Source: an uncultured Leptospiraceae bacterium (GTDB lineage Bacteria; Spirochaetota; Leptospiria; Leptospirales; Leptonemataceae). From it: a stretch of DNA of 12,451 nt. Location of the stretch: NCBI GenBank assembly GCA_964530305.1, contig CAZGYS010000114.1, positions 598 to 13,048 of the forward strand, in the 5' to 3' direction. Positions within the stretch are counted from its first letter, which is position 1, and every line of letters starts with the position of its first letter. A program made the translations under genes and the position numbers. Below, piece by piece: positions 1-12,451 of the stretch. Under the pieces are notes generated by a model. That model worked only from the letters and a program-made list of their open reading frames with translations, was not told where the DNA came from and searched no databases.

Positions 1-2075
1 AACTCTCGTATTCTAGTAAATCTAAAATGACTACCACCTGGCGCGTCACCGGGACGGTGGTGGATCGGGGCGGACGCGTCGGCTCCTCCGTTAAGAAGTT
101 TCTTTCCACCAAGGAATTAACGGCGCGATTGGCCGTGCCCCGTTATTTGAACACGGGCTCCACCGGTCGCGCGTCGGGCATCGTGCGCAATCTTACGCGT
201 AAGCCCATGACCGTCATCGCGCAGTTCCGCGCCAGGGGCGGCCTCAAGCTGGGCAAGCCGGGCGATTCCACGTCCAGCTTCGCGCGCAGCCAGACCTTTC
301 GCGCTACCCTGCAACCCGGTCGTCGAGCCAGCTTCACCGTGAGCGTGTTTTCGCGTACGGAAAATCGCAACGCGAAGATTCAGTTCTTCGCGCGCACCAC
401 CGACGGCAAATACAAGGACAGCCTGGAGAAGAAACTCCCGGTCTATGAAACCGGCCTGACCCACACCCTGGCCTCCAACGACAGCCTGCTCCACGGCAAG
501 GGTCCGGGCGGCAGCAAGGTCATTCGCCTGGAAGGCGATGTACTGCGCCTCGGGAAAGACAAGATCAAGCCGGTGAAATACGAAGTCGTGGTCTACCCCA
601 ATCTCATGGGTTCGGTGCTGGGTTCGCTGGAATACCTGCTCGAGTATCCCCACGGTTGCGTGGAGCAAACCACCAGTCGCTTTTTGCCCAATATCGAAGT
701 GCTGCGCTTCTTGAAGGAGAACGGCATTCGCAATCGCCGTCTGGAAGGCAAGCTTCAGCAAAACATCCAGGGCGGCATTAATAATCTGCTTGAATTGCAA
801 AACCCGAAACGCGGCGGCTGGGGCTGGTGGCGAAGTCGCGGCGGTTACGCCGTGAATCACTGGATGACGGCCTATGCTCTCTATGGTCTCGTCACGGCCA
901 AGAACGCCGGGTTCGACGTGGACCAGGCCAAGCTCAAGAAGGGCCTGGATGCGCTGTATAAAATCATGTACGCGACGGGCGGGGATCGCACCAGCGAACT
1001 GGACGAGCGGGACTATCCCATCAAGGAAAGCTTCGTCGTCTTCGCCAACTATATCCTGACGTCCGCCGGCCGGGGAGAGCCCAGCATCACGGACGCCATC
1101 ACCGTTCTGCAACAGCGCTCGAATCTCGAAGCCCTGGGCTGGGCGGCGCGAGCGCTGGTGCTGGAAGGACGCTGGAAGGATCTGGCGGAACTCCGTAATG
1201 TTATCCTGCGCCAGGCCATTAACTTTCGCTTCCTGCAAGAAGACGTGAACGGCCCCAACACCAGCCAGACTTACTACACGGCCATCGCCCTGGGCGGCAT
1301 CTTCGCCGGTTCGCGCTGGTCAAAAGGCGATTCCATCGAGTTCATCAAGAGCCTGCTGGCCAATCGCTCGGCGGATGGTAAGTTCATTTCCACCCGGGAG
1401 ACGGCGGCGTCCATTCTGACCATGCTGAATTTCCTGCGGGCCAATAAGCAGTACATGCGGCCCAACATGAACGTCACCCTGAAGCTGCCGGACGGTAAGA
1501 CGCGCAAGATTACCATCAATCGCCGCAGCTCCGTATTCAAACCCACGGTGGTGCCCATCGCCCTGTCCGGTTTCGACCCTTCCAATCCGCGCGTGCGCGT
1601 TACCTGGAGCGGCACGGGCCTGGCGCAGGTTTATCTGCGCGCGAAGGTCTTCGAAAAGACGAAGGAATTCAAACCGCGCGACAACGGCATCAGCGTGGAG
1701 CGCAAGTACGTGCCCGAGGGCGCCGACCCCAATCGCGTTAAGTTTTCCGGCATCGTTTCCCAGGGAGACGCGCTGGACGTGATCATTCGCGTGAAGATCA
1801 ACTCGGGCGGCAACTACCTGGCGGTCACCGAATACATTCCGGCCGGCTTCCAACTGGTATCCAGTTTCGATTACTCGTCCGGTCGCACGAACGTTGTCGT
1901 GAAGAAGGACCGTATTCACTTCTACGTGGAGAACTACAGCGGCGTGGAGACGATTCGCTATCGCCTCCGGGCGGTGAACCCGGGTCACTACCTGGTGCAA
2001 CCGGCCAAGGCCGAACTCATGTATCGGGACACCATCAATGGTTCGTCTCGCGCCGAGGTCCTGAAAGTCAACTGA
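1..2075 (+). CDS. Alpha-2-macroglobulin (A2M) family protein, C-terminal portion. It covers a bait-like linker, an MG/CUB-like segment, the thioester domain and a receptor-binding-like C-terminus. The reading frame is open back to window position 3, so the 5' end is probably outside the window. The first in-window ATG is at 27.
   Basis: The translation contains LLEYPHGCVEQTTSRFLPNIEVLRFL. This closely matches the A2M thioester region consensus (P-x-GCGEQ-NM...PNIYVLDYL), and the GCVEQ thioester motif sits at nt 654-668. Downstream there is a Trp/Gly-rich alpha-toroid-like segment (GGWGWW...YALYGLVTA) and a C-terminal beta domain (YLAVTEYIPAGFQLV), as expected for TED plus the receptor-binding/MG8 domain. 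Only about 210 aa precede the thioester, whereas full A2Ms have over 1000 aa of MG domains there, so the protein is probably truncated by the window. The stop codon TGA (2073-2075) overlaps the next ATG. Confidence 0.8.
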   Translation, partial: LSYSSKSKMTTTWRVTGTVVDRGGRVGSSVKKFLSTKELTARLAVPRYLNTGSTGRASGIVRNLTRKPMTVIAQFRARGGLKLGKPGDSTSSFARSQTFRATLQPGRRASFTVSVFSRTENRNAKIQFFARTTDGKYKDSLEKKLPVYETGLTHTLASNDSLLHGKGPGGSKVIRLEGDVLRLGKDKIKPVKYEVVVYPNLMGSVLGSLEYLLEYPHGCVEQTTSRFLPNIEVLRFLKENGIRNRRLEGKLQQNIQGGINNLLELQNPKRGGWGWWRSRGGYAVNHWMTAYALYGLVTAKNAGFDVDQAKLKKGLDALYKIMYATGGDRTSELDERDYPIKESFVVFANYILTSAGRGEPSITDAITVLQQRSNLEALGWAARALVLEGRWKDLAELRNVILRQAINFRFLQEDVNGPNTSQTYYTAIALGGIFAGSRWSKGDSIEFIKSLLANRSADGKFISTRETAASILTMLNFLRANKQYMRPNMNVTLKLPDGKTRKITINRRSSVFKPTVVPIALSGFDPSNPRVRVTWSGTGLAQVYLRAKVFEKTKEFKPRDNGISVERKYVPEGADPNRVKFSGIVSQGDALDVIIRVKINSGGNYLAVTEYIPAGFQLVSSFDYSSGRTNVVVKKDRIHFYVENYSGVETIRYRLRAVNPGHYLVQPAKAELMYRDTINGSSRAEVLKVN
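654..668 (+). other. Thioester site motif GCVEQ of the A2M-family protein. The Cys and Gln would form the reactive beta-cysteinyl-gamma-glutamyl thioester.
   Basis: The codons ggt tgc gtg gag caa at 654-668, read in the ORF frame, give G-C-V-E-Q. The flanking residues match the conserved A2M/C3 thioester context. Confidence 0.7.
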
Positions 2076-2917
2076 TGAGCCGGCATCTCCAATACAGACG
2101 GGCACCCGGCGTCGATCGGTTCGCGGCCATGTGCGCTTGCGCGATTTTCGCGGCCGTACTGGCCGCTTCCTGCGCCACGTCGACCGCCGCCTCTTCGACG
2201 CCGAGCAGTGCTTCGAGCGCGCTGAAGGTCAAGACGTCCGCGCAACTCGTACGCGAAGACAGCCAGCGAGCGGCCGCGGGCAAGGTAATCGCCCGACACA
2301 AGCTGCTGATTACGGCTTATGAATTCGGCGTGACGCGCAACGTGGACGTGGCCGCGCAAAAGCTGAACTACTTTCTGCTGCCTCCCGGCGCGTCCTTTTC
2401 CCTGAACAAGCACCTGGGTAAGCGCACCCCGGACAAGGGTTATAAGAAAGCCCCGGTATATGCGGGCGCGGGGGCGCGTATCAAGGACTTCGGCGGCGGC
2501 CTGTGCATGGTCTCCTCGGTTCTATACAATATTTTTCTACGGGGCGGTCTGGAGATTCTGGAACGCCATCCCCATCGTAAGATTGTGAAATACGTTCCCG
2601 CGGGACTGGACTCGGCGGTGGACTGGGGCAGCAAGGACCTGCGCGTGCGCAACAACCAGCCCCATGCCCTGGTCATTCGCGTCTACCGCGAAGGCAAAAT
2701 CGTACATGGGGAACTCATGGGACCCGCGGGTCCCGCCCATGAAATCGAAATCAAACGCCATCTGTCCCGGGCCATCATTCCGGGCGTTTTGCAAAACGGC
2801 TTTCGCGTCCGAACCACGCGAACCTTCTTCGAACCCGGCGGGGAATTACTCCGAGAAGAAATTCTCTCGGAGGATACTTTCCTGCCCATCAACTACCAGG
2901 GAGCACCCGCTCAATGA
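2075..2917 (+). CDS. VanW-domain protein (VanW/YoaR-like, peptidoglycan-associated protein of unknown biochemical function). It has an N-terminal signal peptide and is possibly a lipoprotein.
   Basis: The 280-aa ORF carries the diagnostic VanW motif block KDFGGGLCMVSSVLYNIF...ERHPHRKIVKYVPAGLDSAVDWGSKDLRVRNNQPHALVI. The VanW consensus is GGGxCQVSTTLYNA...ERHNH...Y...G.DATV, so the match is close. The N-terminus has a basic n-region, a hydrophobic stretch (FAAMCACAIFAAVLAAS) and a Cys. The start overlaps the upstream stop (TGATG), and the stop overlaps the next start (ATGA), which indicates translational coupling. Confidence 0.8.
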   Translation: MSRHLQYRRAPGVDRFAAMCACAIFAAVLAASCATSTAASSTPSSASSALKVKTSAQLVREDSQRAAAGKVIARHKLLITAYEFGVTRNVDVAAQKLNYFLLPPGASFSLNKHLGKRTPDKGYKKAPVYAGAGARIKDFGGGLCMVSSVLYNIFLRGGLEILERHPHRKIVKYVPAGLDSAVDWGSKDLRVRNNQPHALVIRVYREGKIVHGELMGPAGPAHEIEIKRHLSRAIIPGVLQNGFRVRTTRTFFEPGGELLREEILSEDTFLPINYQGAPAQ

Positions 2918-3873
2918 AATCGCATCTTAAATTCACGGCACCGGCAACGGCCGCCCTGACCCTCGCGGCGGCGCTGACCCTGCTCGGGGGATTTTCGGAC
3001 GGACCCCGGGCCCAGGCTTCGTCGACGCGCTACGTTACGGCGAAGTACGGCCTGCGCATGAGGTCCAGGCCTTCCCTGCGTGGGAAACGCGTCGCCACCA
3101 TTCCCGCGAAGGCGCAAGTCTACCTGATAAGGGAGTACGGTCGCACGCAAGTCATGAGCGGAAAGCGCGGTCGCTGGTCCTACGTGCGCTGGAATAAGCG
3201 CGCGGGCTGGGTCTTCGGAGGCTTCTTGAGTCGCCTGCGCCCCGGCGCGAAGGCCGGCATGCCCCGCATCACGATTCTCTCCCCGGGCAGCGGCTGGACG
3301 GCTAAAAAGATCGTCGTAGTAAAAGGGATGATTGAAAGCTCGGAGCCCGTGCGCGAAGCGCGATTTACCCAGAACGGGATCTCGCGCAGCATTCCCGTGA
3401 ACTCGGGACGCTTCTCGCAAAAGATTGTCCTGGGCTCCGGCGCGAACTACATCAAGATCGAAGCCACGAACGCGGGCGGCACTTCGGCGGCGGCGCTGAA
3501 ACTGGTTACGAACAACAGCCCCATGGACATGAAGGTGGTGCTCTCGTGGGATACGAACAACACCGACGTGGATCTGTGGGTTACCGATCCCAACAATGAA
3601 AAGGTTTCCTACCGGAACAAGCGCTCGAAGATAGGCGGGCAACTGGACGTAGACATCACCTCGGGCTACGGCCCCGAGACCTTCACCCTGGCCCGCGCCC
3701 TCCCCGGCGAATACCTGGTTCAGGTTCAGTATTACGGCGGCGCGCGTCCTACGATGGCCCGCGTGCTGGTCGTGCTCTATGAAGGCACCCCGAAAGAAAA
3801 ACGCCTGACCTTTCCCGCGCTTCTGCATAAACGCGGCAGCGGCATCACCATCGGCCGCTTCAAGGTGGACTAA
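2914..3873 (+). CDS. Secreted protein with three parts: an N-terminal bacterial SH3-like (SH3b) domain, an Ig-like beta-sandwich and a C-terminal YfaP-like (DUF2135-like) domain.
   Basis: The signal peptide is MKSHLKFTAPATAALTLAAALTLLGG...AQA. The segment YVTAKYGLRMRSRPSLRGKRVATIPAKAQVYLIREYG...WSYVRWNKRAGWVFGGFL has the SH3b signature (Y-V-x-a-xxLNVRSGPS...G-x-V...WxxV...G-x-GWV). The C-terminal block VLSWDTNNTDVDLWVTDPNNEKVSYRN...GGQLDVDITSGYGPETFTLARALPGEYLVQVQYYGG resembles, from memory, the conserved core of the YfaP/DUF2135 domain that is linked to A2M loci. There is a GGGAG 14 nt upstream of the ATG, and the ATGA overlap with the VanW gene indicates coupling. Confidence 0.7.
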   Translation: MKSHLKFTAPATAALTLAAALTLLGGFSDGPRAQASSTRYVTAKYGLRMRSRPSLRGKRVATIPAKAQVYLIREYGRTQVMSGKRGRWSYVRWNKRAGWVFGGFLSRLRPGAKAGMPRITILSPGSGWTAKKIVVVKGMIESSEPVREARFTQNGISRSIPVNSGRFSQKIVLGSGANYIKIEATNAGGTSAAALKLVTNNSPMDMKVVLSWDTNNTDVDLWVTDPNNEKVSYRNKRSKIGGQLDVDITSGYGPETFTLARALPGEYLVQVQYYGGARPTMARVLVVLYEGTPKEKRLTFPALLHKRGSGITIGRFKVD

Positions 3874-3895
3874 TCAAAATTTCCGGACAATACAC

Positions 3896-4651
3896 ATGAA
3901 GAAAAACGGCAAAATACTCTCCCTCATTCTCGCGGCGGGCATGCTCGCGGTCGTCCCCTGGTCCGAAACCGAGGCCACCAGCTTGACGACGGTCATTCGT
4001 AAAGTTAAGCGCGGCGATCGCAATGCCCTGACCAGTATCAGCTCGCGCGATTTTACGCGCCTGCATAATTACCGCGGCAAGTACTACTATATACCGCGCT
4101 TCATCGGCAAGAAGGCCGTGCGGAGCCTGTTCGGATGCTTCCGAAATCCGGACCGCGAAGTGCGGCGACTGTGCGCGGACAATCTCTACCAGTTCAAACT
4201 CACCTACGTGCACAAGAAACTGATTTTGTATTATATGCAAAAGGAAACCCACAAGCCGACGCGACTGGCCCTCCAGGACCTCATGATTCGCATCGATGAG
4301 GAACGCTTCGCGGAAGCCCGGCGCCTGGGAGACCGGAACTTCCTCACCAAGATTGATTTCGACCACATCCAGCCTTTTACGGAAAAGGGTTACCCCTCCG
4401 GCGGAGCCTACACCGACCGGGACATTCGCTTTTTGCGGGGCGGCCTGGGTAATAAGGACTATCGCATGCGGGTTTACGTCATTCGGATGATGGGACGCGT
4501 GCGCGGCGCCGACGCCACGCTCCTGCGCGTGCTGGCCATCCGGAAGAAACGCGAGTCCAACACCTCGGTTCGGCGCGCCATCGACGAATCCATTCGCTGC
4601 ATTCGCTCGCCCCGGTCCTGCCCGGACCTCTACGGCCCCTCGGATCAATAA
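3896..4651 (+). CDS. Secreted hypothetical protein with HEAT/PBS-lyase-like alpha-helical repeats.
   Basis: The 251-aa ORF starts 23 nt after the previous stop, in the same orientation. Its signal peptide is MKKNGKILSLILAAGMLAVVPWSETEA. It has repeated D/N-x-x-VRR-x-(A/C)-x-x-(L/I) segments (DREVRRLCADNL, DYRMRVYVIRMMGRV, NTSVRRAIDESI) typical of HEAT-like repeats. There is no recognisable catalytic motif. Codon usage is consistent with the neighbouring genes. Confidence 0.55.
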   Translation: MKKNGKILSLILAAGMLAVVPWSETEATSLTTVIRKVKRGDRNALTSISSRDFTRLHNYRGKYYYIPRFIGKKAVRSLFGCFRNPDREVRRLCADNLYQFKLTYVHKKLILYYMQKETHKPTRLALQDLMIRIDEERFAEARRLGDRNFLTKIDFDHIQPFTEKGYPSGGAYTDRDIRFLRGGLGNKDYRMRVYVIRMMGRVRGADATLLRVLAIRKKRESNTSVRRAIDESIRCIRSPRSCPDLYGPSDQ

Positions 4652-4671
4652 TATTCGAACACTATATGGTT

Positions 4672-4704
4672 CGCCGTCGTCTAAATTTATAAATGCCGGC
4701 GGCG
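4672..4704 (+). terminator. Stem-loop 21 nt downstream of the HEAT-protein stop codon. The stem is GC-rich and 10 bp long (one mismatch, one G-U pair), and it encloses the AT palindrome ATTTATAAAT. It could be an operon-end terminator or a protein-binding site.
   Basis: CGCCGTCGTC (4672-4681) pairs with GCCGGCGGCG (4695-4704). The loop is TAAATTTATAAAT, which contains the perfect palindrome ATTTATAAAT. On the + strand it is followed by an A-rich rather than a U-rich tract, so intrinsic-terminator character is weak. Confidence 0.25.
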
Positions 4705-4774
4705 ATCCAAAAAGTACTTGTCTATCATCGTGCTTTCGACATCCTTCCAGCCGCGGGCATTGGGGGCACATTCC

Positions 4775-4794
4775 CGGAACGTTACAGCGTTCCG
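4775..4794 (+). promoter_or_regulatory. Perfect inverted repeat CGGAACG-N6-CGTTCCG in the long intergenic region. It is a candidate operator or protein-binding palindrome, or a small hairpin.
   Basis: CGGAACG (4775-4781), spacer TTACAG, then CGTTCCG (4788-4794). The arms are exact reverse complements. There is no downstream U-tract. Confidence 0.25.
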
Positions 4795-4929
4795 CCGCAT
4801 GCGTGCTCCCGAGTTTTCACGACATAAACCATTAAGCGGTGGCGGACGATTTTCGCATTGCGATTGATTCGTTCGTCGTAGCCGTGCATAGTTTACCCTC
4901 ACGAACCTTTATCGGTTCGCGCGGGGTTA

Positions 4930-4959
4930 GCGGCGTATTTCGCGTCGCATGGTTTTTTT
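4930..4959 (+). terminator. Weak candidate intrinsic terminator: a short GC hairpin followed by a T7 tract.
   Basis: GCGGCG (4930-4935) pairs with CGTCGC (4943-4948) using one G-U pair, around the loop TATTTCG. ATGG and then TTTTTTT (4953-4959) follow. The stem is short, and there is a 4-nt gap before the T-tract. Confidence 0.2.
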
Positions 4960-4979
4960 GAGACATAGTCCGCTTCAGG

Positions 4980-5007
4980 ACGTATTTAATATATACGAAA
5001 CGTATTC
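4980..5007 (+). promoter_or_regulatory. Direct repeat ACGTATT ... ACGTATT spaced 20 bp apart (two helical turns). The copies flank TAATATATACGAA. This is a candidate transcription-factor site or AT-rich promoter element.
   Basis: ACGTATT occurs at 4980-4986 and at 5000-5006. The intervening sequence is strongly AT-rich (TTAATATATACGA), and it lies about 110 nt upstream of the yqiJ-like start. Confidence 0.2.
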
Positions 5008-5050
5008 AGCGGCGCACGCAAGCGCGACGCTTCGCGTAAAACAAAACGCA

Positions 5051-5080
5051 TTACAACAGCCTGGCAAGAGAATATAGATA
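5051..5080 (+). promoter_or_regulatory. Candidate sigma70-type promoter for the yqiJ-like, flotillin and giant-ATPase operon.
   Basis: TTACAA (5051-5056) and TATAGA (5073-5078) are separated by a 16-nt spacer. The predicted transcription start is about 25-30 nt upstream of an AAGGGAG Shine-Dalgarno-like element (5091-5097), and the ATG is at 5113. These are sequence-only predictions. Confidence 0.3.
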
Positions 5081-5112
5081 GAGAGCATCAAAGGGAGTAC
5101 TGAAGAAAACAA

Positions 5113-5856
5113 ATGCCGCCCATCATAGCCGAATCCATCAAACTGGTTAACCTTCCTTATACCATCTTCCTGGGAGTCATCATCATCTTCTGGCTCACCG
5201 TCATGCTCGGCGCGCTGGACATGGAATCCCTGGACGTGGACGCGGATGTCGACGCCGATGTTGATCTCGACCTCGACGTGGATATGGACGTGGACGCAGA
5301 CTTCGATGCCGATATCGACGCGGACGTGGACGCCGACCTGGATACGGATCTGGATGCCGACGCCGGCATGGGCGGCGGCGCGCTGGGCAGTTTCTGGGCC
5401 GCCTTGAACCTGGGCGCCGTGCCCCTATCCGTCTGGCTTTCCATCTTCGGAATCCTGTGCTGGTTCCTGTCCGTCAGCGGCAACATCATCGTGGACGGCA
5501 CGGTCCTCAAGAGCATTCATAACTTCTTTCGCCTGGTGCTGGGCAGTCTGTTGATCATTCCCCTGGCCGCGTTCATTACGCGTTTCGCCGTAATACCCCT
5601 GCGCCCGGTGTTTCGCATTCCGGACCCCAAGGACAATAAGGACTACGTCCGGGACATCTGCAAGATTACGTCATCAAAAGTGACGCCGACCTTCGGCATG
5701 GCGGAAATTCCCACGGACGCATCGCCCCTGCTCGTCAATGTTCGCGCCCGCGAAGAAGAGGGTCTGACCAAGGGCGACAAGGCGATGATCCTGCGTTATC
5801 ATAAAGATAAAAATTATTACGATGTAACCCGCTTCGAACACGAGAGCCTGAACTAG
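5113..5856 (+). CDS. YqiJ/NfeD-like inner-membrane protein (flotillin-associated). It has three predicted transmembrane helices and a C-terminal OB-fold-like beta domain. A 44-residue alternating Asp-X tract sits between TM1 and TM2.
   Basis: The 247-aa ORF has hydrophobic helices at about aa 14-35, 92-120 and 138-162. The C-terminal soluble segment (TFGMAEIPTDASPLLVNVRAREEEGLTKGDKAMILRYHKDKNYYDV) resembles the NfeD/YqiJ C-terminal beta-barrel, including a TKGDK-hydrophobic motif that I recall from E. coli YqiJ. It lies immediately upstream of a flotillin gene, which is the canonical nfeD/yqiJ position. An AAGGGAG RBS-like element is present upstream. Confidence 0.75.
   Translation: MPPIIAESIKLVNLPYTIFLGVIIIFWLTVMLGALDMESLDVDADVDADVDLDLDVDMDVDADFDADIDADVDADLDTDLDADAGMGGGALGSFWAALNLGAVPLSVWLSIFGILCWFLSVSGNIIVDGTVLKSIHNFFRLVLGSLLIIPLAAFITRFAVIPLRPVFRIPDPKDNKDYVRDICKITSSKVTPTFGMAEIPTDASPLLVNVRAREEEGLTKGDKAMILRYHKDKNYYDVTRFEHESLN
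5233..5361 (+). repeat. In-frame imperfect hexanucleotide tandem repeat (GAY-NNN), about 22 units. It encodes the strictly alternating dipeptide tract DVDADVDADVDLDLDVDMDVDADFDADIDADVDADLDTDLDAD.
   Basis: Direct reading of 5233-5361 shows Asp codons (GAC/GAT) at every second codon. The intervening codons encode V/A/L/M/F/I/T. The period is 6 nt and the frame is never broken. Confidence 0.85.
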
Positions 5857-5868
5857 CGGGCTACCGCT

Positions 5869-5895
5869 TCGCGCGGACATCGCCGCACCGCGCGA
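5869..5895 (+). other. GC-rich intercistronic stem-loop between the yqiJ-like gene and the flotillin gene. The stem is 8 bp and the loop 11 nt. It could be a partial terminator, an attenuator or an mRNA-stability element.
   Basis: TCGCGCGG (5869-5876) pairs perfectly with CCGCGCGA (5888-5895). It sits 13 nt after the TAG stop at 5854-5856. It is followed by CCTCTTCATG and has no clean U-tract. The flotillin RBS AAGGAGA lies about 40 nt downstream. Confidence 0.3.
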
Positions 5896-5951
5896 CCTCT
5901 TCATGATTGAAGAGCACCTACTCGGCGAATTTACGAAGGAGAAATGAATAG

Positions 5952-8036
5952 ATGAAGGAAATACTGGATCTTTTAACCAGCGGATTGATTGGCCTGTCGG
6001 TACTGGTAATCTTTTTGCTGATTGGCATAGTCTTTTTGCTGACCCGCTTTCTGGCCAAGGTGGAGCCGGGCAAGGCATTGATCATCATCAGTCCTTTCAA
6101 GGGCATGAAGGTATCATTCACCGGCGCGCTGGTATTTCCTTTAATTCATAGAATGGAGATCATGGACATCTCCACCAAGATGATTACCGTGGAAAGGCGG
6201 GGCAAGGACGGCCTGATCTGCAAGGACAACATGCGGGCCGACATATCGGTGAACTTCTACCTGCGCGTAAATCCCACGCGGGAAGACGTCACCCAGGTCG
6301 GCCAGAGTATCGGTGTGGCGCGTGCCTCAACGCGGGAGACGCTGGACTCCCTCTTTCAAGCTAAATTCTCCGAAGCCCTCAAGACCGTGGGTAAACAGAT
6401 GGACTTCGAGGATCTGTTCATGGAGAGAACAAGTTTCAAGGAGCAAATCGTAGAGAGCATCGGAGATAACCTGAACGGCTACAGCCTGGAAGATACGGCC
6501 ATCGACTATCTGGAGCAAACGCCCCTCGAGGAACTGGATGAAAACAACATCATGGACGCGGAAGGTATTCGCAAGATTACCGAAATCACGCTGACCAAAA
6601 AGGAAGTCGTCGAGAAGCGCACCACGGAAACCCGCGAGCGCATCCTGGAGCTGGAAAAACAGCGCAAGGAAGCGGAAGCCAAGCAGAAAAGTGAAATCAT
6701 GATCATCGAAGCCAAGGAAGAGGCCGAAGCCAAACGCGTACAGGAAGAAGAACGCCTGAAGGCCGAATCCGCGCGCATTGCATCGGACGAAAGCATCTCC
6801 GTGGGCGAAGTCAACATGGCTCGTCAGATCGAAGTGGCGGAGAAAAACAAGGAACGGGAAGTCGCCGTGGAAACCGAGCGCGTTGAAAAAGACCGCGCCC
6901 TGGAAGCCACCGACCGCGAAAAGCTCGTGGCCCTGGCCACCATCGAGAAAGACCGCGTGGTGGAAGCCGAGCGCAAGAACATCGCCGATATCGTGCGTCA
7001 ACGCGTGGCCGTGGAAAGAACCGTGGCCGAAGAAGAAGAGACCACGAAGAATACCCGCGCCTTCGCCGGAGCCGACCGGGACAAGCGCGTGGCCATCACC
7101 CACGCCGAAAAGGAAGCCGAGGAAAAACTGGTACTTGAAATCAAGTCCGCCGAAGCACGCGAAAAAGCGGCCGCTCACTTGGCGCGGGAAAAAGAAATCA
7201 ACGCGGACGTGGAGTTCTCCACCGCTTCCAAGCACGCCGACGCCAAGAAGACCCTGGCCGAGGGTATCATCGCCGAGGAAAGCGCCGAGGGCCTGGCCAA
7301 AGTCAAGGTCAAGCAGGCCGACGCCGACGCCATCCGCCGCGTAGGCGAAGCCGAGGCCAAGGCCAAGGAATTCGACTACGAAGTGGAAGCCAAGGGCATC
7401 AAGGAGAAGGGCCTGGCGGAAGTAAACGTCCGCAACGCCAACGCGGAAGTCACCGAACGCATCGGCCAGGCGGAAGCCGAATCCAAGCGCTTCATGTACG
7501 ACGTGGAAGCTCAAGGCATCGAGAAAAAAGCGGAAGCCATGAAAAACTACGACGGCGTGGGCCGCGAACACGAGGAATACAAACTGCAACTGGCCCTGCG
7601 CGAAAAGCTGGAGCTGGAGCGCATCGGCGTGAACAAGGACATCGCCATTGCGCGGGCGGAAGTCCTGGGAACCGCGTTGGAGAACGCGAAGATCGACATC
7701 GTGGGCGGGGACGGACAGTTCTTCGACAAGATCGTCGGGGCCGTTTCCGACGGACGCTCCGCGTCGGCCTTCATGAAGAACAACGAGCCTTTGACCGAAG
7801 TCAAGGACGCCCTGCTGGCCTCCGGGGACGACAATTTGTTGAATCGCATCAAGACCCTGGCCGATCACACCGGCATCTCGGCGGAGAGCGTGAAGGATCT
7901 CACCATCGCCGCGGTGCTCACCAAAATGGCCGTGGCCACGGACGACGGTTGGGTCAAGGAACAAGTCAATTCCCTCTCCGCCATGGCGGACAAGGTCGGC
8001 CTGAGCGATATGAAGCTCGGAAAACTGATGGGTTGA
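5952..8036 (+). CDS. Flotillin-like SPFH/band-7 family protein (YqiK/FloT-like). It has an N-terminal membrane anchor, an SPFH domain and a long Glu/Ala/Lys-rich coiled-coil flotillin tail.
   Basis: The 694-aa ORF begins with a transmembrane helix (LIGLSVLVIFLLIGIVFLLTRFL). The SPFH core is PGKALIIISPFKGMKVSFTGALVFPLIHRMEIMDISTKMITVERRGKDGLICKDNMRADISVNFYLRVNPTREDVTQV. It is followed by about 450 aa of EAxxK/ExxER heptad-like repeats, which are typical of bacterial flotillins. A strong SD (AAGGAGA) lies 11 nt upstream of the ATG. The gene follows a yqiJ/nfeD-like gene, as in known flotillin operons. Confidence 0.9.
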   Translation: MKEILDLLTSGLIGLSVLVIFLLIGIVFLLTRFLAKVEPGKALIIISPFKGMKVSFTGALVFPLIHRMEIMDISTKMITVERRGKDGLICKDNMRADISVNFYLRVNPTREDVTQVGQSIGVARASTRETLDSLFQAKFSEALKTVGKQMDFEDLFMERTSFKEQIVESIGDNLNGYSLEDTAIDYLEQTPLEELDENNIMDAEGIRKITEITLTKKEVVEKRTTETRERILELEKQRKEAEAKQKSEIMIIEAKEEAEAKRVQEEERLKAESARIASDESISVGEVNMARQIEVAEKNKEREVAVETERVEKDRALEATDREKLVALATIEKDRVVEAERKNIADIVRQRVAVERTVAEEEETTKNTRAFAGADRDKRVAITHAEKEAEEKLVLEIKSAEAREKAAAHLAREKEINADVEFSTASKHADAKKTLAEGIIAEESAEGLAKVKVKQADADAIRRVGEAEAKAKEFDYEVEAKGIKEKGLAEVNVRNANAEVTERIGQAEAESKRFMYDVEAQGIEKKAEAMKNYDGVGREHEEYKLQLALREKLELERIGVNKDIAIARAEVLGTALENAKIDIVGGDGQFFDKIVGAVSDGRSASAFMKNNEPLTEVKDALLASGDDNLLNRIKTLADHTGISAESVKDLTIAAVLTKMAVATDDGWVKEQVNSLSAMADKVGLSDMKLGKLMG

Positions 8037-8037
8037 C

Positions 8038-11000
8038 ATGGCCGAGGAAACTTCCACGACAATCGCGGACGAAGAAGTCGGACCGGGCGAAAGCCCGGCC
8101 GGCGAAGGCTCCCAGGGCGGCGGCGCCCTTGAGGGTGGTTCCTATGAGATCATTCGCAATCGCCTTTCCAAAATAGGCGATGAACTCCTGGAGCGCATCA
8201 ACCAGCTCAACGGCCGACGCAAGGAAGTCTTCGGCGCGCTGGACAATCGCCTGGTGGGGCAGGAGCAGATCCTCACCGACACCAATTGCGTCCCCATCGA
8301 CATGAAGTCGCTGGGCGGCAATCGCTTGATTTTCGGTTATCGCGTCTATTTAGGTTTGAAGACGACGCCGAAGATCTCGGATGTCTTCAGCCTGTATGAA
8401 TTCAAGGACGATAAATTCGAACCGGCACCCGCGGATTTTCTGGAGACGCCGGCCTTCGTCCGCGATTTCAACGACCTCTTTAACTATTATAAGAACTCCC
8501 GGTTCGTAACCTTTCATAAGGACGAATCGCGCCTGCTGATGGTTTTCCAGGTGGGCAAGGAAAGCGAGGACATTCGTGCCTTCAAGTGGCTCCTGAACGG
8601 GGACAATACCCTGACCTACGTAAACAATCGCGCCGAGCGCGAATACGTTTACCCGCCCCAGCACGAATTCGAATGGAAGCGAGCCACGCGGGATCAACAG
8701 ATCTACGGCACGCACCCGCACATCTCCATCGAGGACAAGGTTTTCGTGGAGTGTACCGGCGGCGATTTAACCATCAAGGTCGAGAACAATACCGATTCCG
8801 GCGCCGGCATTTATCGCGAGGACGTGGAACACAAGGACCAGACGCTGGACGACGCGGAAGTTCACTACGCCGTTCTGGATCACGTGGTACTTTTGCGCAT
8901 CAAGCCCTTTCGCGAAAAGGACTACCGCTATATTATTTTTAATGAGAAGACCGAAAAGGCCGTGCGGGTGGACGACATCGAGCAGAGCGCCATTCGTCTG
9001 CCCGAGGACGACGGTCTGATCTTTCCCCGGGGTTACTATCTGGAGAGCGGCGAATATAAGCGCTTCGAGCTGGAGATTCCCTCCATGCAGTATCGCAAGC
9101 TCTTGCCCTCGTCAAACGGCGAAGACTTCCTGTACGTTTTCTTCAACGCCGACCTGGGCGAATACATTCTGCTGCAATACAATCTAATCGAAAAGAAAGT
9201 CGAAAACCCCATCTACTGCCACGGCTTCGCGCTCTACGAAGACGGCAAGATGATCTTCTTCAAGGGCGATGAGCAGGCCAAGAAGAATCACGGCATTCAA
9301 ATCTGGCAAACGCCCTTCGTCAGCGACAAGCACATGCAACTGGCCGTGAAGGACGATTCGGAACTGAATCGCATCGGTAACAAGGAGCTGGTGCGGGGCA
9401 TAGCGGATTTGCGTTCCGTGTTGAATCTGTTGCGCACGGAAAAAGTCTACCTGGGTCTTTATCATCAAATCGCCCGCAAGGTTACCAATACGCTGGACTT
9501 CCATCACTGGATGGGATCCGACCAGGTCTTTAATCCGAAGGAAGTCCTGCAACGCGCGGGCGAAACCGCCAAGGGCGCGCTGGAAGAGTACGAAAAAGTC
9601 GTGCAAATTCGCGCGAACACCGAGAACGCCGTGAAGGCCGCCTCGAGTCGCATGGAAAAACTGGAGCTGGAGCTGGGCGGCCGTCGCTTCGAACAGATCG
9701 AGCAGTACGTGGAAACCCTGGCGGATCTGCGCATGGAGCGCGGCAAGATCATTTCCCTGAAAGAATTGCGCTACGTCGACGCGAACAAGGTCGACGAGCT
9801 GGAAGCCATCGCCGTAAGGCTGCACGACGTGACCGCCCATGGGTGCGTGGAGTTTCTGTTAAAACCCGAGGCGCTCACGCCCTTCATGGACAAACTCAAG
9901 GACTACGAGGGGCAAATCACGGAGCTGGAGAAAGTGGCCCAGTTGCGCGAACTGGGTGAGAAAATCGCCCAGGTAAACGAGAGCGCCAACCTGCTGACCG
10001 AGATGGTCAACAACCTGGAGATCGACGACGCCACTCAGACCACGAACATCATCAACAACATCTCGAATGTTTATACGCGCATCAACCAGGTCAAGGCCGC
10101 GCACAAGAAACACACCCATTCCCTGCACGCCCAGGAGTCCAAGGAAGAGTTCGCCGCGCAGTTCAAGCTCATCAGCCAGACCGTGGCCACCTTCCTGGAT
10201 CAAGCCGATTCGCCCGAACGCTGCGAAGAGCTTCTGACGCGGGTTCTCGTTCAACTGGAGGAACTGGAAGCACGCTTCGCCGATTTCGACGAGTACATCG
10301 AGGAGCTTTCGCGCAAGCGCGAGGAGATCTACAGCGCCTTCAATTCGCGCAAGGTGCAACTGGAAGAAGGTCGCAACAAGCGCAGCGCCACGCTATGGAA
10401 ATCCGCGGAGCGCATCCTCAAGGGCGTATCCAATCGCATGTCCCAGTTGAAGGGCATCGACGAACTAAACGCCTACTTCGCGGGAGACGCCATGATCACC
10501 CGCGTGCGGGACATCGTTGAGAAACTGGCGGAGATGGGAGATCAGGTGAAGTCCGAGGACATCGCCGGTCGCCTCAAGAGCCTCAAACAAGAAGGCGCGC
10601 GTCAGTTAAAAGACAAGCTGGACCTCTTCGCCGACGGCGCGGACGTCATCAGTCTGGGTCGCCATAAGTTTCTGATCAATACCCAGTCCGCGGAACTGAC
10701 CACCGTCAATCGCGACGGAGAAATGTGCTTTCATTTAACGGGCACGGAATTCTTCGAACCCATTCAAGACGAAAGCTTCGAAGCCACCCGACCGTTCTGG
10801 GAACAGGAGCTGCCTTCGGAGACGTCGGAGATCTATCGCGCCGAATACCTGGCGTACAAGATTATCCGCTCCGTGCGTGAGGAAGGCACGCCCCTTTCGG
10901 AAAAGGAACTCCACGACATCACCCGGGACCTGGACCGCGAATTTCACAACGCCGAACCCAACGAACTCCAGGAAGCCCCGGACTTTCAGAAACTACTGGA

Positions 11001-12451
11001 AGCCGTACGATCCTTCATGGCCGGGCGCTATTCCGAGGGATATGAAAAAGGCGTGCACGATCTGGATTGCGCGCGCCTGCTGACGGCCCTCTACCCCGTG
11101 TACGCCCGCGCGGGCGCATTGCGATTCGCGCCGGATACGCGCGCTTATGGATATTTGTACTGGCGCCACGCGGAGCACACCGAGGCCAAGGAGTTGCTGG
11201 GTCGCAAGATTCGCTCCTATGGCCTTCTGGGCGAACTGACTCCCACGGCCAACGCTCATCCCGTTTACGTCGAGCAATTGAACGAGATGGTCGCCGCCTG
11301 GTTCGAGGACCAGGGCATTCCCGCGAAACCGGGGGCCCTGCGCCACACGGCGGACTACCTATTCGAGGAACTCAAGGCGGGCCGCGGCGACGCCATGGGC
11401 GGCGCGAAGGGCACCGGCCACATGTTTCCCATCAACGGGCAGGCCTATGATATCTACATGGCCTTTCGCGATTTTCTCAAGTCGAAGAAATCCATTCGCC
11501 GTTTCAATGAAGCCGTGAAGAGCATCGGTCCGGGAGCGGGAGGACGCCTGTCCATCATTCAGGACTGGGTGGGAGCTTTCGTGGATGCCCACGAGGAGAT
11601 GAATTCGGACTTCGTCCTGGAAACCTCCATGGCCGTGCTCGACGAAACGCTGGACGATAAACTGGACGGCGATCTGGATTCCGGACTCGTCGTGAAAATC
11701 GACACAACCTGCACGGCACGAGGCATGATGGGGCGTCACCCGCGCATCGAAGACGGCAACCTCAGCGTGGACGTGGCCGACTTCCTGATGCGACTCGACG
11801 AATTCGAGACCGAGAGCGTACCGCGCTACCGCGATTACACGCAACTCAAGCACGACCTTACCGAAAAACAAAAAGACGTCATGCGTCTGGACGAATTCAA
11901 GCCGCGCATCATGAGCGCCTTCGTGCGTAACAAACTCATCGATACGGCCTACCTGCCCCTCATCGGCGCGAACCTGGCCAAGCAGATGGGTTCCTACGGC
12001 GATCAAAAACGCACGGACCTCATGGGCCTGTTGATGCTGATTTCGCCGCCCGGTTACGGCAAGACGACCTTGATGGAGTACATCGCCAATCGCCTGGGGC
12101 TGATCTTCATGAAGATCAACGGTCCGGCTCTCGGCCACAATGTCGTGTCCCTGGATCCGCAGGAGGCGCCCAACGCCACCGCGCGCGAAGAGGTGAACAA
12201 ACTCAACCTGGCGCTGGAGATGGGCAACAACGTCATGATCTACCTGGACGACATCCAGCACACGCACCCGGAGTTTCTTCAAAAGTTTATTTACCTCTGT
12301 GACGCGCAGCGCAAGATCGAGGGTGTCTATCGCGGACGCACGCGAACCTACGACCTGCGGGGCAAGCGCGTCTCGGTGGTCATGGCCGGCAACCCGTATA
12401 CGGAAAGCGGCGAAAAGTTCCAGGTCCCCGATATGCTGGCCAACCGGGCCG
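8038..12451 (+). CDS. Giant multidomain protein, 3'-partial, with at least 1471 aa in the window. It has an N-terminal beta-rich region (about aa 1-480), a central coiled-coil region of about 370 aa, an alpha/beta middle region and a C-terminal AAA+ ATPase domain. Its architecture is reminiscent of the large proteins annotated as 'DNA repair ATPase' (DUF3686 plus AAA), but I have not verified this.
   Basis: ATG 8038 lies 1 nt after the flotillin TGA (8034-8036). Frame 1 has no stop from 8038 to the window end. I translated it myself. The ORF track omits it because it lacks an in-window stop. Every other + strand ORF listed in this span is in a different frame and is R/P-rich junk. The translation is protein-like throughout and begins MAEETSTTIADEEV...GGSYEIIRNRLSKIGDELLERINQL. 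It has heptad-rich segments (EKLELELGGRRFEQIEQYVETLADLRMERGK, VLVQLEELEARFADFDEYIEELSRKREEIYSAF). It ends with an AAA+ core: Walker A LISPPGYGKTTLMEY (nt 12043-12069 encode SPPGYGKTT), Walker B VMIYLDDIQH (YLDD at 12241-12252), sensor-1 VVMAGNPY (12376-12393), then PDMLANRA at the window edge. Confidence 0.8.
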   Translation, partial: MAEETSTTIADEEVGPGESPAGEGSQGGGALEGGSYEIIRNRLSKIGDELLERINQLNGRRKEVFGALDNRLVGQEQILTDTNCVPIDMKSLGGNRLIFGYRVYLGLKTTPKISDVFSLYEFKDDKFEPAPADFLETPAFVRDFNDLFNYYKNSRFVTFHKDESRLLMVFQVGKESEDIRAFKWLLNGDNTLTYVNNRAEREYVYPPQHEFEWKRATRDQQIYGTHPHISIEDKVFVECTGGDLTIKVENNTDSGAGIYREDVEHKDQTLDDAEVHYAVLDHVVLLRIKPFREKDYRYIIFNEKTEKAVRVDDIEQSAIRLPEDDGLIFPRGYYLESGEYKRFELEIPSMQYRKLLPSSNGEDFLYVFFNADLGEYILLQYNLIEKKVENPIYCHGFALYEDGKMIFFKGDEQAKKNHGIQIWQTPFVSDKHMQLAVKDDSELNRIGNKELVRGIADLRSVLNLLRTEKVYLGLYHQIARKVTNTLDFHHWMGSDQVFNPKEVLQRAGETAKGALEEYEKVVQIRANTENAVKAASSRMEKLELELGGRRFEQIEQYVETLADLRMERGKIISLKELRYVDANKVDELEAIAVRLHDVTAHGCVEFLLKPEALTPFMDKLKDYEGQITELEKVAQLRELGEKIAQVNESANLLTEMVNNLEIDDATQTTNIINNISNVYTRINQVKAAHKKHTHSLHAQESKEEFAAQFKLISQTVATFLDQADSPERCEELLTRVLVQLEELEARFADFDEYIEELSRKREEIYSAFNSRKVQLEEGRNKRSATLWKSAERILKGVSNRMSQLKGIDELNAYFAGDAMITRVRDIVEKLAEMGDQVKSEDIAGRLKSLKQEGARQLKDKLDLFADGADVISLGRHKFLINTQSAELTTVNRDGEMCFHLTGTEFFEPIQDESFEATRPFWEQELPSETSEIYRAEYLAYKIIRSVREEGTPLSEKELHDITRDLDREFHNAEPNELQEAPDFQKLLEAVRSFMAGRYSEGYEKGVHDLDCARLLTALYPVYARAGALRFAPDTRAYGYLYWRHAEHTEAKELLGRKIRSYGLLGELTPTANAHPVYVEQLNEMVAAWFEDQGIPAKPGALRHTADYLFEELKAGRGDAMGGAKGTGHMFPINGQAYDIYMAFRDFLKSKKSIRRFNEAVKSIGPGAGGRLSIIQDWVGAFVDAHEEMNSDFVLETSMAVLDETLDDKLDGDLDSGLVVKIDTTCTARGMMGRHPRIEDGNLSVDVADFLMRLDEFETESVPRYRDYTQLKHDLTEKQKDVMRLDEFKPRIMSAFVRNKLIDTAYLPLIGANLAKQMGSYGDQKRTDLMGLLMLISPPGYGKTTLMEYIANRLGLIFMKINGPALGHNVVSLDPQEAPNATAREEVNKLNLALEMGNNVMIYLDDIQHTHPEFLQKFIYLCDAQRKIEGVYRGRTRTYDLRGKRVSVVMAGNPYTESGEKFQVPDMLANRA
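11900..12451 (+). other. AAA+ ATPase domain (truncated by the window end) at the C-terminus of the giant ORF.
   Basis: The P-loop GYGKTT, a hydrophobic run followed by DD (Walker B), and an Asn-containing sensor-1 (AGN) appear in the canonical order and spacing (about 65 aa from Walker A to B, about 45 aa from B to sensor-1). The Walker A variant SPPGYGKT differs from the usual GPPGTGKT. Confidence 0.7.

Follow-up and report, generated by a model that had tools for sequence, protein, structure and literature searches.

A giant DUF3686-family AAA+ ATPase encoded beside a flotillin-like protein and a YqiJ/YuaF-type membrane protein in a Leptospiraceae genome

The NfeD-flotillin pairs YqiJ-YqiK of Escherichia coli and YuaF-FloT of Bacillus subtilis are of the same type as the first two genes of the cassette described here, and to our knowledge neither of these model operons includes a gene for a giant ATPase. 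The FtsH-HflK/C and Vps4-ESCRT-III systems follow a logic like that of the present cassette, in which an AAA+ protein is coupled genetically to an SPFH scaffold and, in Bacteroidota, also to PspA of the ESCRT-III superfamily. The same operon has been described by comparative genomics, including longer versions with PspA and CesT, by Ravi et al. [quoted passage not shown] That study neither assigns the ATPase to a clade nor gives its motifs or structure; these are supplied in the present analysis. Elsewhere, Makarova et al. 2024 gives general SPFH/ESCRT context only, a 2026 survey of Pseudomonas SPFH proteins and a 2022 phyletic paper on Psp do not mention the ATPase, and our literature search under the names of the DUF3686 family or its partners found nothing on the protein.

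We analyzed a stretch of 12,451 nucleotides (the window) from an uncultured Leptospiraceae bacterium, in which three genes make up the cassette:

5113-5856, forward strand: YqiJ/YuaF-type (NfeD-like) membrane protein, 247 aa, first cassette gene
5952-8036, forward strand: flotillin-like SPFH/Band 7 protein, 694 aa, second cassette gene
8038-12451, forward strand: giant DUF3686-family AAA+ ATPase, third cassette gene, of which the first 1471 codons are present

The ATPase has the same domain order as that in PMC11237479, and the same two partners precede it in the same order. Because a tblastn search for PspA and CesT found neither in the window (best E 0.18), the window corresponds to the 'abbreviated operon' of that study, which comprises YqiJ/YuaF, band-7/flotillin, and the ATPase only, without PspA and CesT/Tir. 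The Bacteroidota loci that we compared match the full published operon, including its divergent HTH and protease regulator, with PspA_IM30 (E 3e-34) and CesT_Tir_1 (E 1e-55) genes upstream in 12-14 loci.

The initial annotation had reported an uninterrupted frame of more than 1471 codons as the largest gene in the window and absent from its list of open reading frames, and our translation agrees with this: positions 8038-12451 on the forward strand contain 1471 codons with zero stops and one leftover base, the runners-up in the window reach 694 and 682 aa, and the gene is missing from the list because its frame leaves the window at the 3′ edge. The start is unambiguous, since no start is possible between the in-frame stop at 8026-8028 and the ATG at 8038, which a single base separates from the TGA of the upstream SPFH gene (TGAcATG). 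The unusual length and the missing stop codon are all that would speak for an assembly or frameshift artefact fusing separate genes. The chance of an open frame of 1471 codons at the base composition of the window is about 1e-23, in-frame GC3 stays at 0.72-0.80 across all 600-nt blocks, and codon usage is coherent along the frame, with correlations of 0.82-0.85 among its thirds against -0.15 for a control shifted by +1. In one BLASTP alignment with a homologue of 1691 aa, residues 11-1471 pair with its residues 4-1457 (59% identity), and from this single colinear alignment it follows that no frameshift or fusion is present; moreover, 186 homologues of at least 1500 aa have the identical domain order. 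The colinear alignment and the codon statistics rule out an artefact, for which we would leave a practically negligible probability, and 8038-12451 is a real gene that is colinear with full-length homologues. The homologues run on for about 230 aa or more, and, judged by their length, some 230 C-terminal residues lie beyond the window edge, so that the window encodes the first ~87% of a ~1,700-residue cytoplasmic AAA+ ATPase of the DUF3686 family.

The first partner, of 247 aa, has transmembrane (TM) helices, an acidic D-x repeat linker at aa 40-83, and a compact C-terminal domain; genes in the equivalent position of Spirochaetota, Bacteroidota, and Planctomycetota loci encode its homologues. 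The window copy itself falls below Pfam significance. Among 61 members of its family, YqiJ_N is matched by 22 (best E 3.5e-8) and the NfeD C-terminal domain by 5, and the top solved structure for the family profile is B. subtilis YuaF (2K14), at a marginal E of 0.03. In the second partner, of 694 aa, a TM helix at the N terminus is followed by an SPFH domain (aa 36-181), then by a long helical stretch rich in E, A, and K, and lastly by a C-terminal domain; its counterparts at this position in three phyla share 46-62% identity with it. It matches Pfam Band_7 at E 5.7e-7, over the curated cut-off, and its family profile finds QmcA of E. coli, an SPFH cage protein (8Z5G), at E 3e-4. At ~700 aa, it is longer than proteins of the YqiK/FloT type, and the generic Band_7 model is the only one that it matched, as none of the flotillin-specific Pfam models matched even at E<=1. 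The label "flotillin-like" is thus a provisional one, taken from the architecture and from PMC11237479. Both partners carry TM segments, and the ATPase has none.

In the window, the three genes are co-directional and follow one another at 5113-5856, 5952-8036, and from 8038, a single base separating the second gene from the third. The SPFH gene stands directly upstream of the ATPase gene on the same strand in 63 of the 66 loci compared, both partners do so in the same order in 59 of the 66, and the three genes co-occur across at least nine phylum-level groups. For each of the three window proteins, the loci of three phyla encode a homologue. No conserved gene was found downstream of the ATPase gene or between the SPFH and ATPase genes in these loci. 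The genes inserted in some Bacteroidota are lineage-specific, such as that for a PH_40 protein in Pontibacter. A promoter and terminator scan of 4500-6100 gave no excess over shuffled sequence and so does not define the 5′ boundary of the operon. On gene order and co-occurrence, we conclude that the ATPase gene is the last gene of a conserved, predicted three-gene operon.

We next give the layout of the ATPase upstream of its AAA+ module, where the structured parts come from Pfam matches and from AF2 models (pLDDT 83.7 and 81.3):

8038-8133, forward strand: disordered acidic, Gly-rich N-terminal tail, aa 1-32 (pLDDT 31-36)
8182-9507, forward strand: Pfam DUF3686 match, aa 49-490, with the predicted propeller as its core
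8248-9309, forward strand: predicted divergent beta-propeller, aa 71-424, after a helix at 34-65
9361-10626, forward strand: predicted long helical rod, aa 442-863, with helices of up to 58 residues
9868-10113, forward strand: Pfam DUF7902 match within the rod, aa 611-692
10645-10761, forward strand: small beta domain of five short strands, aa 870-908, in the AF2 model
10837-11907, forward strand: all-alpha domain and linker, aa 934 to ~1290, in the AF2 models

The N-terminal tail varies between homologues, whose alignments start at about aa 11-31. The initial annotation had suggested a propeller or beta-sandwich from five hydrophobic blocks; all five lie on predicted strands, and 3D comparison of the model matches propeller folds. 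A profile-profile search for internal blade repeats reached a best probability of only 12%, so the propeller call is taken from 3D comparison only, and the N-terminal third is best described as a predicted divergent beta-propeller. The middle had been called a coiled coil, and it is indeed a long helical rod in the models, but 3D comparison gives spectrin-like, generic three-helix bundles, which would describe it better than a coiled coil does. The propeller, rod, and AAA+ module of that earlier domain list are all recovered, and two domains had been missed. One is the small beta domain, with the invariant residues G867, F878, N881, G902, and T903; the other is the all-alpha domain, which has a conserved motif, YxEGYxKGVHDxDA (aa 997-1011), and the invariant residues E1000, Y1002, K1004, G1005, D1008, D1010, and R1035, and for which Pfam and PDB searches returned no match.

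The last part of the frame holds the AAA+ module, with the following features:

11935-12451, forward strand: AAA+ alpha/beta core, aa ~1300-1471, cut by the window edge just past the probable arginine finger
12043-12066, forward strand: Walker A P-loop SPPGYGKT, aa 1336-1343, with Ser replacing the usual first Gly
12238-12261, forward strand: Walker B strand IYLDDIQH, aa 1401-1408, with Asp-Asp instead of the usual Asp-Glu
12313-12354, forward strand: predicted pre-sensor-1 beta-hairpin, aa 1426-1439, between Walker B and the sensor-1 strand
12385-12450, forward strand: AGNPYTESGEKFQVPDMLANRA, aa 1450-1471, with the beta4 strand, probable sensor-1 Asn1452, and probable arginine finger Arg1470

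An AAA+ domain continuing past the window edge had been proposed from the sequence, and both structure prediction and structural neighbours support the fold. The window copy has Walker A, Walker B, a polar sensor-1 residue after beta4, an arginine finger, and a Rossmann-like alpha/beta core; the roles of Asn1452 and Arg1470 are probable, being assigned from the canonical AAA+ layout. The P-loop and sensor region, which lie where the initial annotation had placed them, had also been put forward as family-specific markers, and this is borne out by 179-185 of 185-186 family members. SPPGYGKT is identical in 185 of the 186 members of at least 1500 aa and invariant in three family alignments, the hhhhDD pattern of Walker B, on strand beta3 of the AF2 model, is found in 181 of 185, AGNPY in 179 of 185, and PDML.NRA in 181 of 185. 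Past the window edge, the homologues have a helical lid with an invariant GSYR (183 of 185). Judged from these alignments, all four motifs (SPPGYGKT, the DD Walker B, AGNPY, and PDML.NRA) are genuine signatures of the family, and the near-invariance of the nucleotide-site motifs makes it very probable that the protein is active as an NTPase.

A propeller followed by a helical rod is also the plan of clathrin, nucleoporins, and HOPS, and the protein could be mainly a structural scaffold or coat whose AAA+ module only regulates its own polymerization on flotillin-marked patches, rather than remodelling its partners. Foldseek matches to the terminal domain and linker of the clathrin heavy chain, to a nuclear pore scaffold chain, and to Vps18 point this way, the DD Walker B may be a sign of slow, switch-like hydrolysis, and Planctomycetota and Verrucomicrobiota have many members of the family. 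However, the TM-scores are low, the helical part resembles generic three-helix bundles and not alpha-solenoids, the candidates for sensor-1, arginine finger, and sensor-2 are nearly invariant, as in a working ATPase, and the family is no less common in Bacteroidota, Myxococcota, and Clostridia. We consider a coat function unlikely.

For placement within AAA+, a structural search with the module returned NorQ, CbbQ, midasin, and dynein at the top, by a small margin over Clp and Lon. The DUF3686 model has in common with the MoxR-type proteins (NorQ, CbbQ, and RavA) and with the AAA_5 modules of midasin and dynein the pre-sensor-1 hairpin, here predicted from strands at 263-268 and 271-276 in the model of the P0001 module (adding 1163 gives the window residues). 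It differs from the MoxR/AAA_5 group in its Ser Walker A and DD Walker B, in having no VWA/MIDAS domain in the ATPase or in the conserved neighbour proteins, and perhaps in the helix-2 region (module residues 199-216), where DSSP of the predicted model gives a conserved loop with short helices and no hairpin insert. There is one AAA+ module per chain, compared with six in midasin and dynein. Pfam AAA_5, whose cut-off is 22 bits, scores 20.3 bits on the window copy, which is cut by the edge, and 27.7 bits on the complete P0001 module, yet PF00004 (31.4) and AAA_22 (30.5) equal or exceed this. The classical AAA clade (Vps4, p97/Cdc48, FtsH, and katanin) has a full PF00004 domain with the second region of homology and lacks a pre-sensor-1 hairpin, and this combination is not found in the DUF3686 ATPase. 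PDB sequence searches with the single protein and with the family profile gave only matches of P-loop length to p97 and RuvB, which are uninformative on the clade. On the predicted structure, the module appears closest to MoxR-type NorQ/CbbQ and midasin, and not to Vps4, p97, or RuvB.

The family itself is already catalogued. PF12458 (DUF3686) matches aa 49-490 over positions 1-448 of the 448 in its profile (E 1.2e-177, 591 bits, cut-off 25), PF25472 (DUF7902) matches the helical middle at E 3.6e-22, and the combination of DUF3686, DUF7902, and AAA is not a new architecture. Homologues number more than 4900, come from at least 575 species, and have full lengths of about 1650-1900 aa, and in 689 representative clusters the DUF3686 module is nearly always N-terminal in proteins of about 1600-1900 aa. 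The nearest database relative of the window ATPase is 59% identical and comes from a Spirochaetota MAG. As the find of a genome scan, the window copy is ordinary, being a partial copy of a catalogued family in a published type of operon.

Databases name the protein 'DNA repair ATPase', and with this name and the Pfam description, the weak matches to RuvB_N/RuvB (E 1e-4 to 3e-3) and, in Bacteroidota, the divergent HTH and weak S24 (LexA/CI-like) regulator adjoining the operon could suggest action in the manner of RuvB or of a coiled-coil protein such as SMC, Rad50, or RecN. The NCBIfam RuvB model gives 21 bits against a cut-off of 282, NCBIfam as a whole yields only sub-threshold P-loop matches to RuvB and CDC48, domain searches found no DNA-binding domain in the ATPase, and structural comparison makes it AAA+ and not ABC, with none of the ABC heads of SMC, Rad50, and RecN. 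A role in DNA repair is very unlikely, and 'DNA repair ATPase' is a mislabel, a name without support.

We also weighed an anti-phage or conflict system, in which the ATPase would be motor or sensor and the membrane partners the effectors, for instance in abortive infection through membrane perturbation. The distribution is patchy though wide, the flanks outside the cassette vary, and the combination of a propeller 'sensor' with a giant multi-domain NTPase recalls some STAND/NLR-like defence proteins; in one locus, an Apyc1-like gene adjoins the cassette. Matches in PADLOC-DB 2.0 (mad8 at E 1e-3, and cyclase at E 5e-5 in the helical region) are marginal and fall on generic P-loop or coiled-coil stretches, the partners match nothing there, and the defence reading is not adopted for this reason. 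No effector domain, whether nuclease, protease, TIR, pore-toxin, or another, is found, the ATPase keeps 45-60% identity over 1450 aa across phyla, unlike fast-evolving defence genes, and it is linked to PspA and CesT, which are housekeeping envelope-stress proteins. We regard a defence role as quite improbable.

The reading that we favour, with slightly better than even confidence, is that of a flotillin-linked DUF3686 ATPase in a membrane-remodelling operon. Most likely, the ATPase would use ATP to remodel assemblies of flotillin or PspA at the inner membrane, and the flotillin-ATPase system is predicted to be involved, probably, in membrane maintenance. The AAA+ modules would assemble into a ring like those of NorQ, CbbQ, and other AAA+ proteins, and the propeller at the end of the rod would bind the flotillin-like oligomer or the YqiJ partner, plus PspA where present. 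ATP hydrolysis could then remodel sub-membrane assemblies through assembly, through turnover or disassembly, or through extraction of a client, in the service of inner-membrane maintenance or the stress response. Functional parallels would be found in FtsH and its HflK/C cages, in Vps4 and ESCRT-III, and in midasin, which pulls factors from a large complex. More tentatively, and as something that we hold possible but well short of probable, the DUF3686 ATPase may be the long-missing remodeller of bacterial sub-membrane scaffolds, a MoxR/midasin-type ring with six propeller-tipped, spectrin-like arms that grip flotillin cages and, in the longer operons, PspA/ESCRT-III polymers, to disassemble or recycle them.

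If this were true, the protein would be the equivalent of Vps4 in function while having arisen independently, from another AAA+ clade, in lineages for which reviews at present report that there is no such ATPase. The turnover of SPFH cages and ESCRT-III-like polymers without a Vps4-type motor would have in the DUF3686 ATPase a concrete candidate, as it is among the few AAA+ proteins genetically tied to both bacterial flotillins and PspA. What is added here, namely the clade assignment, the domain map with coordinates, the signature motifs including the DD Walker B, and the operon statistics, is a basis for mutant design and for correction of the annotation. The DUF3686 family, which is large, highly conserved, and misleadingly named, is a worthwhile target.

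The frame at 8038–12451(+) is open throughout, comprising 1471 sense codons plus a single base left over, and the chance probability of 1471 open codons is ~1e-23 at this base composition. The initial annotation had claimed a giant uninterrupted ORF here, missing from the ORF listing, and this is what we find; the sole cause of its absence is that the frame runs past the 3′ edge. ATG 8038 is the earliest start codon following the in-frame stop at 8026–8028, and the TGA of the upstream gene ends one base before it (…ATG GGT TGA c ATG GCC…). The check on codon-usage coherence that had been proposed came out clean: in-frame GC3 is 0.72–0.80 per 600-nt block, the same as in neighbouring genes, and codon usage correlates at 0.82–0.85 among thirds of the ORF versus −0.15 for a +1-shifted control. 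In one BLASTP alignment at 59% identity, residues 11–1471 are colinear with residues 4–1457 of a homologue 1691 aa long, with no hidden frameshift or gene fusion over that span. We therefore regard an assembly or frameshift artefact, which is refuted by both the alignment and the uniform codon usage, as having practically no chance of being correct. Minus-strand ORFs of up to 576 aa overlie plus-strand genes at 2911–3828(−), 3860–4771(−), 6327–8057(−), and 11359–12282(−). By GC at each codon position, the first two are non-coding shadow ORFs, typical in GC-rich DNA (the real gene across the 3860–4771 stretch is 3896–4651(+), GC3 0.76 vs 0.53), and we assume that the other two are likewise shadows.

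The encoded ATPase belongs to the DUF3686 family, as seen from its Pfam matches:

Pfam matches of the ATPase
aa 49–490, DUF3686 (PF12458), full profile length, E 1e-177
aa 611–692, DUF7902 (PF25472), E 4e-22
aa 1333 onward, AAA-type P-loop models

Among 5.8 billion proteins searched, >4900 are homologues at E<1e-10; the top one, from a Spirochaetota MAG, is only 59% identical. Full-length homologues have 1650–1900 aa, so the window copy is short of ~230 C-terminal residues; most are unnamed or labelled "DNA repair ATPase". In an exhaustive HMMER search, the first 500 residues match 689 representative clusters, among which the DUF3686 module is nearly always at the extreme N-terminus of ~1600–1900-aa proteins. 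Shorter matches look like contig-end fragments, and the domain is essentially limited to one architecture. Scanning one genome per species gave at least 575 carriers. The spread below was counted on 80 fetched loci, with Spirochaetota added from the protein homologue search.

Taxonomic spread of the ATPase (fetched loci of 80)
Bacteroidota, 29
Verrucomicrobiota/Lentisphaeria, 21
Planctomycetota, 14
Desulfobacterota, 5
Clostridia, 4
Myxococcota, 3
Fibrobacterota, 1
Gammaproteobacteria, 1
unclassified, 2

The 1906-aa homologue P0026 (locus L005, Desulfobacterales bacterium HSG16) has Pfam ankyrin-repeat matches besides DUF3686, DUF7902, and AAA, and is a variant carrying an additional protein-binding module. 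Another full-length member, P0030 (EukProt g33011.t1, 1711 aa, 48% identical to the window ATPase), is filed in a eukaryotic data set, which could reflect contamination or horizontal transfer. Our literature search turned up no experiments on the ATPase, no papers naming DUF3686 or PF12458, and no solved structure of the family. The window gene adds a truncated copy to a family already catalogued and described computationally.

An AlphaFold2 model of residues 1–1200, made from a 79-sequence alignment (mean pLDDT 83.7), divides the protein as follows:

aa 1–32, disordered tail
aa 34–65, helix
aa 71–424, all-beta domain of 26 strands, pLDDT >90
aa 442–863, long helices, the longest of 58 residues
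aa 870–908, small beta domain of five strands
aa 934–1200, all-alpha domain

The architecture of this real gene had been read well in the initial annotation, and all five of its "beta-strand-like blocks" fall on predicted strands. We read the N-terminal third as a predicted divergent propeller, so that of the earlier "propeller or beta-sandwich" the propeller stands. The middle is helical as claimed, but in the monomer model it fits a spectrin-like helical rod better than a coiled coil. Two invariant polar patches, YxEGYxKGVHDxDA in the alpha domain (window 11029–11070, aa 998–1011) and HPH.SIED..FVE..GGDLTIK.E.NT..G.GIY.E.V...DQ.LDD in the propeller (aa 224–272), are candidate binding or catalytic sites judging by sequence.

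The AAA+ C-terminus that had been proposed is borne out by the P-loop matches from aa 1333 and by an AAA+ fold in a model of homologue P0001, whose residues we mapped onto the window protein. The neighbour scores of this module are:

NorQ, 13.7
CbbQ, 13.6
midasin, 13.0
dynein, 12.3
ClpA, 12.1
ClpB, 11.9
Lon, 11.6
p97, Vps4, and FtsH, 9.2–10.5
RuvB, 9.5

In the model, a beta-hairpin corresponding to window residues 1426–1439 separates Walker B from the sensor-1 strand. Classical AAA proteins lack this pre-sensor-1 hairpin. The PF00004 alignment covers the first half of its profile only, whereas AAA_5 covers positions 2–127 of 139. From the scores, the hairpin, and the AAA_5 coverage, we class the predicted module as MoxR/AAA_5-like. 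It falls short of a canonical MoxR, because it has no VWA partner, the helix-2 insert is unclear (DSSP of the model shows no helix-2 hairpin), and the margin of the MoxR-type neighbours over Clp and Lon is small.

The suggestion that its motifs could be family-specific markers holds up, since they are near-invariant in family proteins 1500 aa or longer:

SPPGYGKT, 185/186
Walker B Asp-Asp (window 12238–12261), 181/185
AGNPY, 179/185
PDML.NRA, 181/185
lid motif GSYR, 183/185

By analogy with the canonical AAA+ layout, sensor 1 is probably Asn1452, the arginine finger is probably Arg1470, and sensor 2 is probably the arginine of GSYR. The sole truly unusual catalytic feature is the near-invariant Asp that replaces the Walker B glutamate, which may make hydrolysis slow or regulated; among AAA+ families, it is unusual to lose the catalytic glutamate while keeping all other nucleotide-site motifs. 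The protein could instead be mainly a structural propeller-plus-rod coat in which the AAA+ module is regulatory, but we consider this unlikely because TM-scores are low and the nucleotide-site motifs look like those of a working ATPase.

The most informative evidence is the operon context. Two genes directly precede the ATPase in the window:

5113–5856, small membrane protein, 247 aa, carrying an acidic repeat and, at its C-terminus, a compact domain
5952–8036, SPFH protein, 694 aa, with an N-terminal TM helix, SPFH/Band 7 (E 6e-7), a long E/A/K-rich helix, and a C-terminal domain

The same three-gene order, with a homologue of each protein, is seen in Spirochaetota, Bacteroidota, and Planctomycetota loci. 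We searched all ORFs of the fetched loci with HMMs of both partners; among the 66 loci whose upstream sequence reaches 3.3 kb or more, the SPFH gene lies directly upstream of the ATPase on the same strand in 63, and both partner genes are present in 59. Gene order is always small protein, SPFH, ATPase; three loci have a solo ATPase, and no conserved gene lies downstream among the fetched loci. Both partners contain TM-like segments but the ATPase contains none (maximum 19-residue hydropathy 1.06), making it a soluble ATPase with two membrane-protein partners.

The small protein is of YqiJ/YuaF (NfeD-like) type: YqiJ_N matches 22/61 family members (best E 3.5e-8), the NfeD C-terminal model matches 5, and the best solved structure for the family profile is Bacillus subtilis YuaF (2K14, marginal E 0.03). 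Its alternating acidic repeat, DVDADVDADVDLDLDVDMDVDADFDADIDADVDADLDTDLDAD (window 5230–5361, aa 40–83), separates the first TM helix from the remainder, gives spurious matches to staphylococcal SD-repeat adhesin models, and may bind cations; in homologues the acidic stretch at this position is shorter. The SPFH family profile matches the Escherichia coli cage protein QmcA (E 3e-4). No flotillin-specific Pfam model gave a match, so the label "flotillin-like" is based on architecture. AT skew is very strong (0.48–0.50) at 6500–7500, where the E/A/K-rich region is built from purine-rich codons. A terminator-like hairpin and T-run at 4930–4948(+), between gene 3896–4651 and the first cassette gene, may mark the 5′ operon boundary, but such sites are no commoner than in shuffled sequence. 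Farther upstream, 27–3873(+) holds three operon-like genes with overlapping stops and starts, unrelated to the cassette:

first gene, cut at the 5′ edge, bacterial alpha-2-macroglobulin C-terminal part (A2M, TED, and bMG10 domains)
2075–2917(+), VanW-like protein (Pfam)
2914–3873(+), SH3_3/Glucodextran_B/DUF2135 protein (Pfam)

Comparative genomics has described this operon as CesT/Tir-PspA plus three further genes, one a 3TM protein with YqiJ and YuaF as prototypes; shortened versions that keep just the final three genes have a wider distribution, and a chaperone-like role in assembly of membrane-linked complexes was proposed (Ravi et al. 2024, PMC11237479). The Dokdonia donghaensis neighbourhood in their supplementary table has the gene order of the Bacteroidota loci recovered here. 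In 12–14 of these, the cassette follows genes for CesT_Tir_1 (E 1e-55) and PspA/IM30 (E 3e-34); the window has no PspA. Linkage of the three genes is tight across phyla and the PspA/CesT extension is optional. In some Bacteroidota, one or two additional genes, none of them conserved, separate the flotillin-like gene from the ATPase (e.g., a PH_40 membrane protein in Pontibacter; 9147–9875 in locus L003; gaps in L007, L019, L041, and L069), and in L063 short ORFs lie there in tandem duplicate.

In the Bacteroidota operons, a divergently transcribed regulator with HTH_3 and a weak Peptidase_S24 match (LexA/CI-like) adjoins CesT_Tir_1 and PspA, ~4–6 kb upstream of the ATPase (L013, L015, L019, L023, L026, L027, L053, L062, L069, L074, L082, and L084). 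Its presence hints that an autocleaving repressor controls the operon, and this could be the one slender tie to a DNA-damage signal. That the protein is itself a DNA-repair ATPase is very improbable, given that RuvB matches are of P-loop length only, there is no DNA-binding domain, and the cassette context is membranous. An anti-phage role for the cassette is improbable too, as it has no PADLOC support and no effector domain, and sequence conservation is high.

We are nearly certain of the gene and operon identity, evenly divided on ATP-driven remodelling, and slightly in favour of the two combined. In the remodelling mechanism, the AAA+ modules would form a ring, the propeller tipping the helical rod would bind the flotillin-like oligomer, YqiJ, or PspA, and ATP would drive remodelling of those sub-membrane assemblies in membrane maintenance or stress. 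According to a 2025 review, bacteria appear to lack a Vps4-like ATPase (PMC7619361). An SPFH to ESCRT-III link recurs (Makarova et al. 2024, PMC10936438). Speculatively, the ATPase may remodel flotillin and PspA scaffolds of bacteria in the manner of Vps4, having evolved independently around a MoxR/midasin-type ring.
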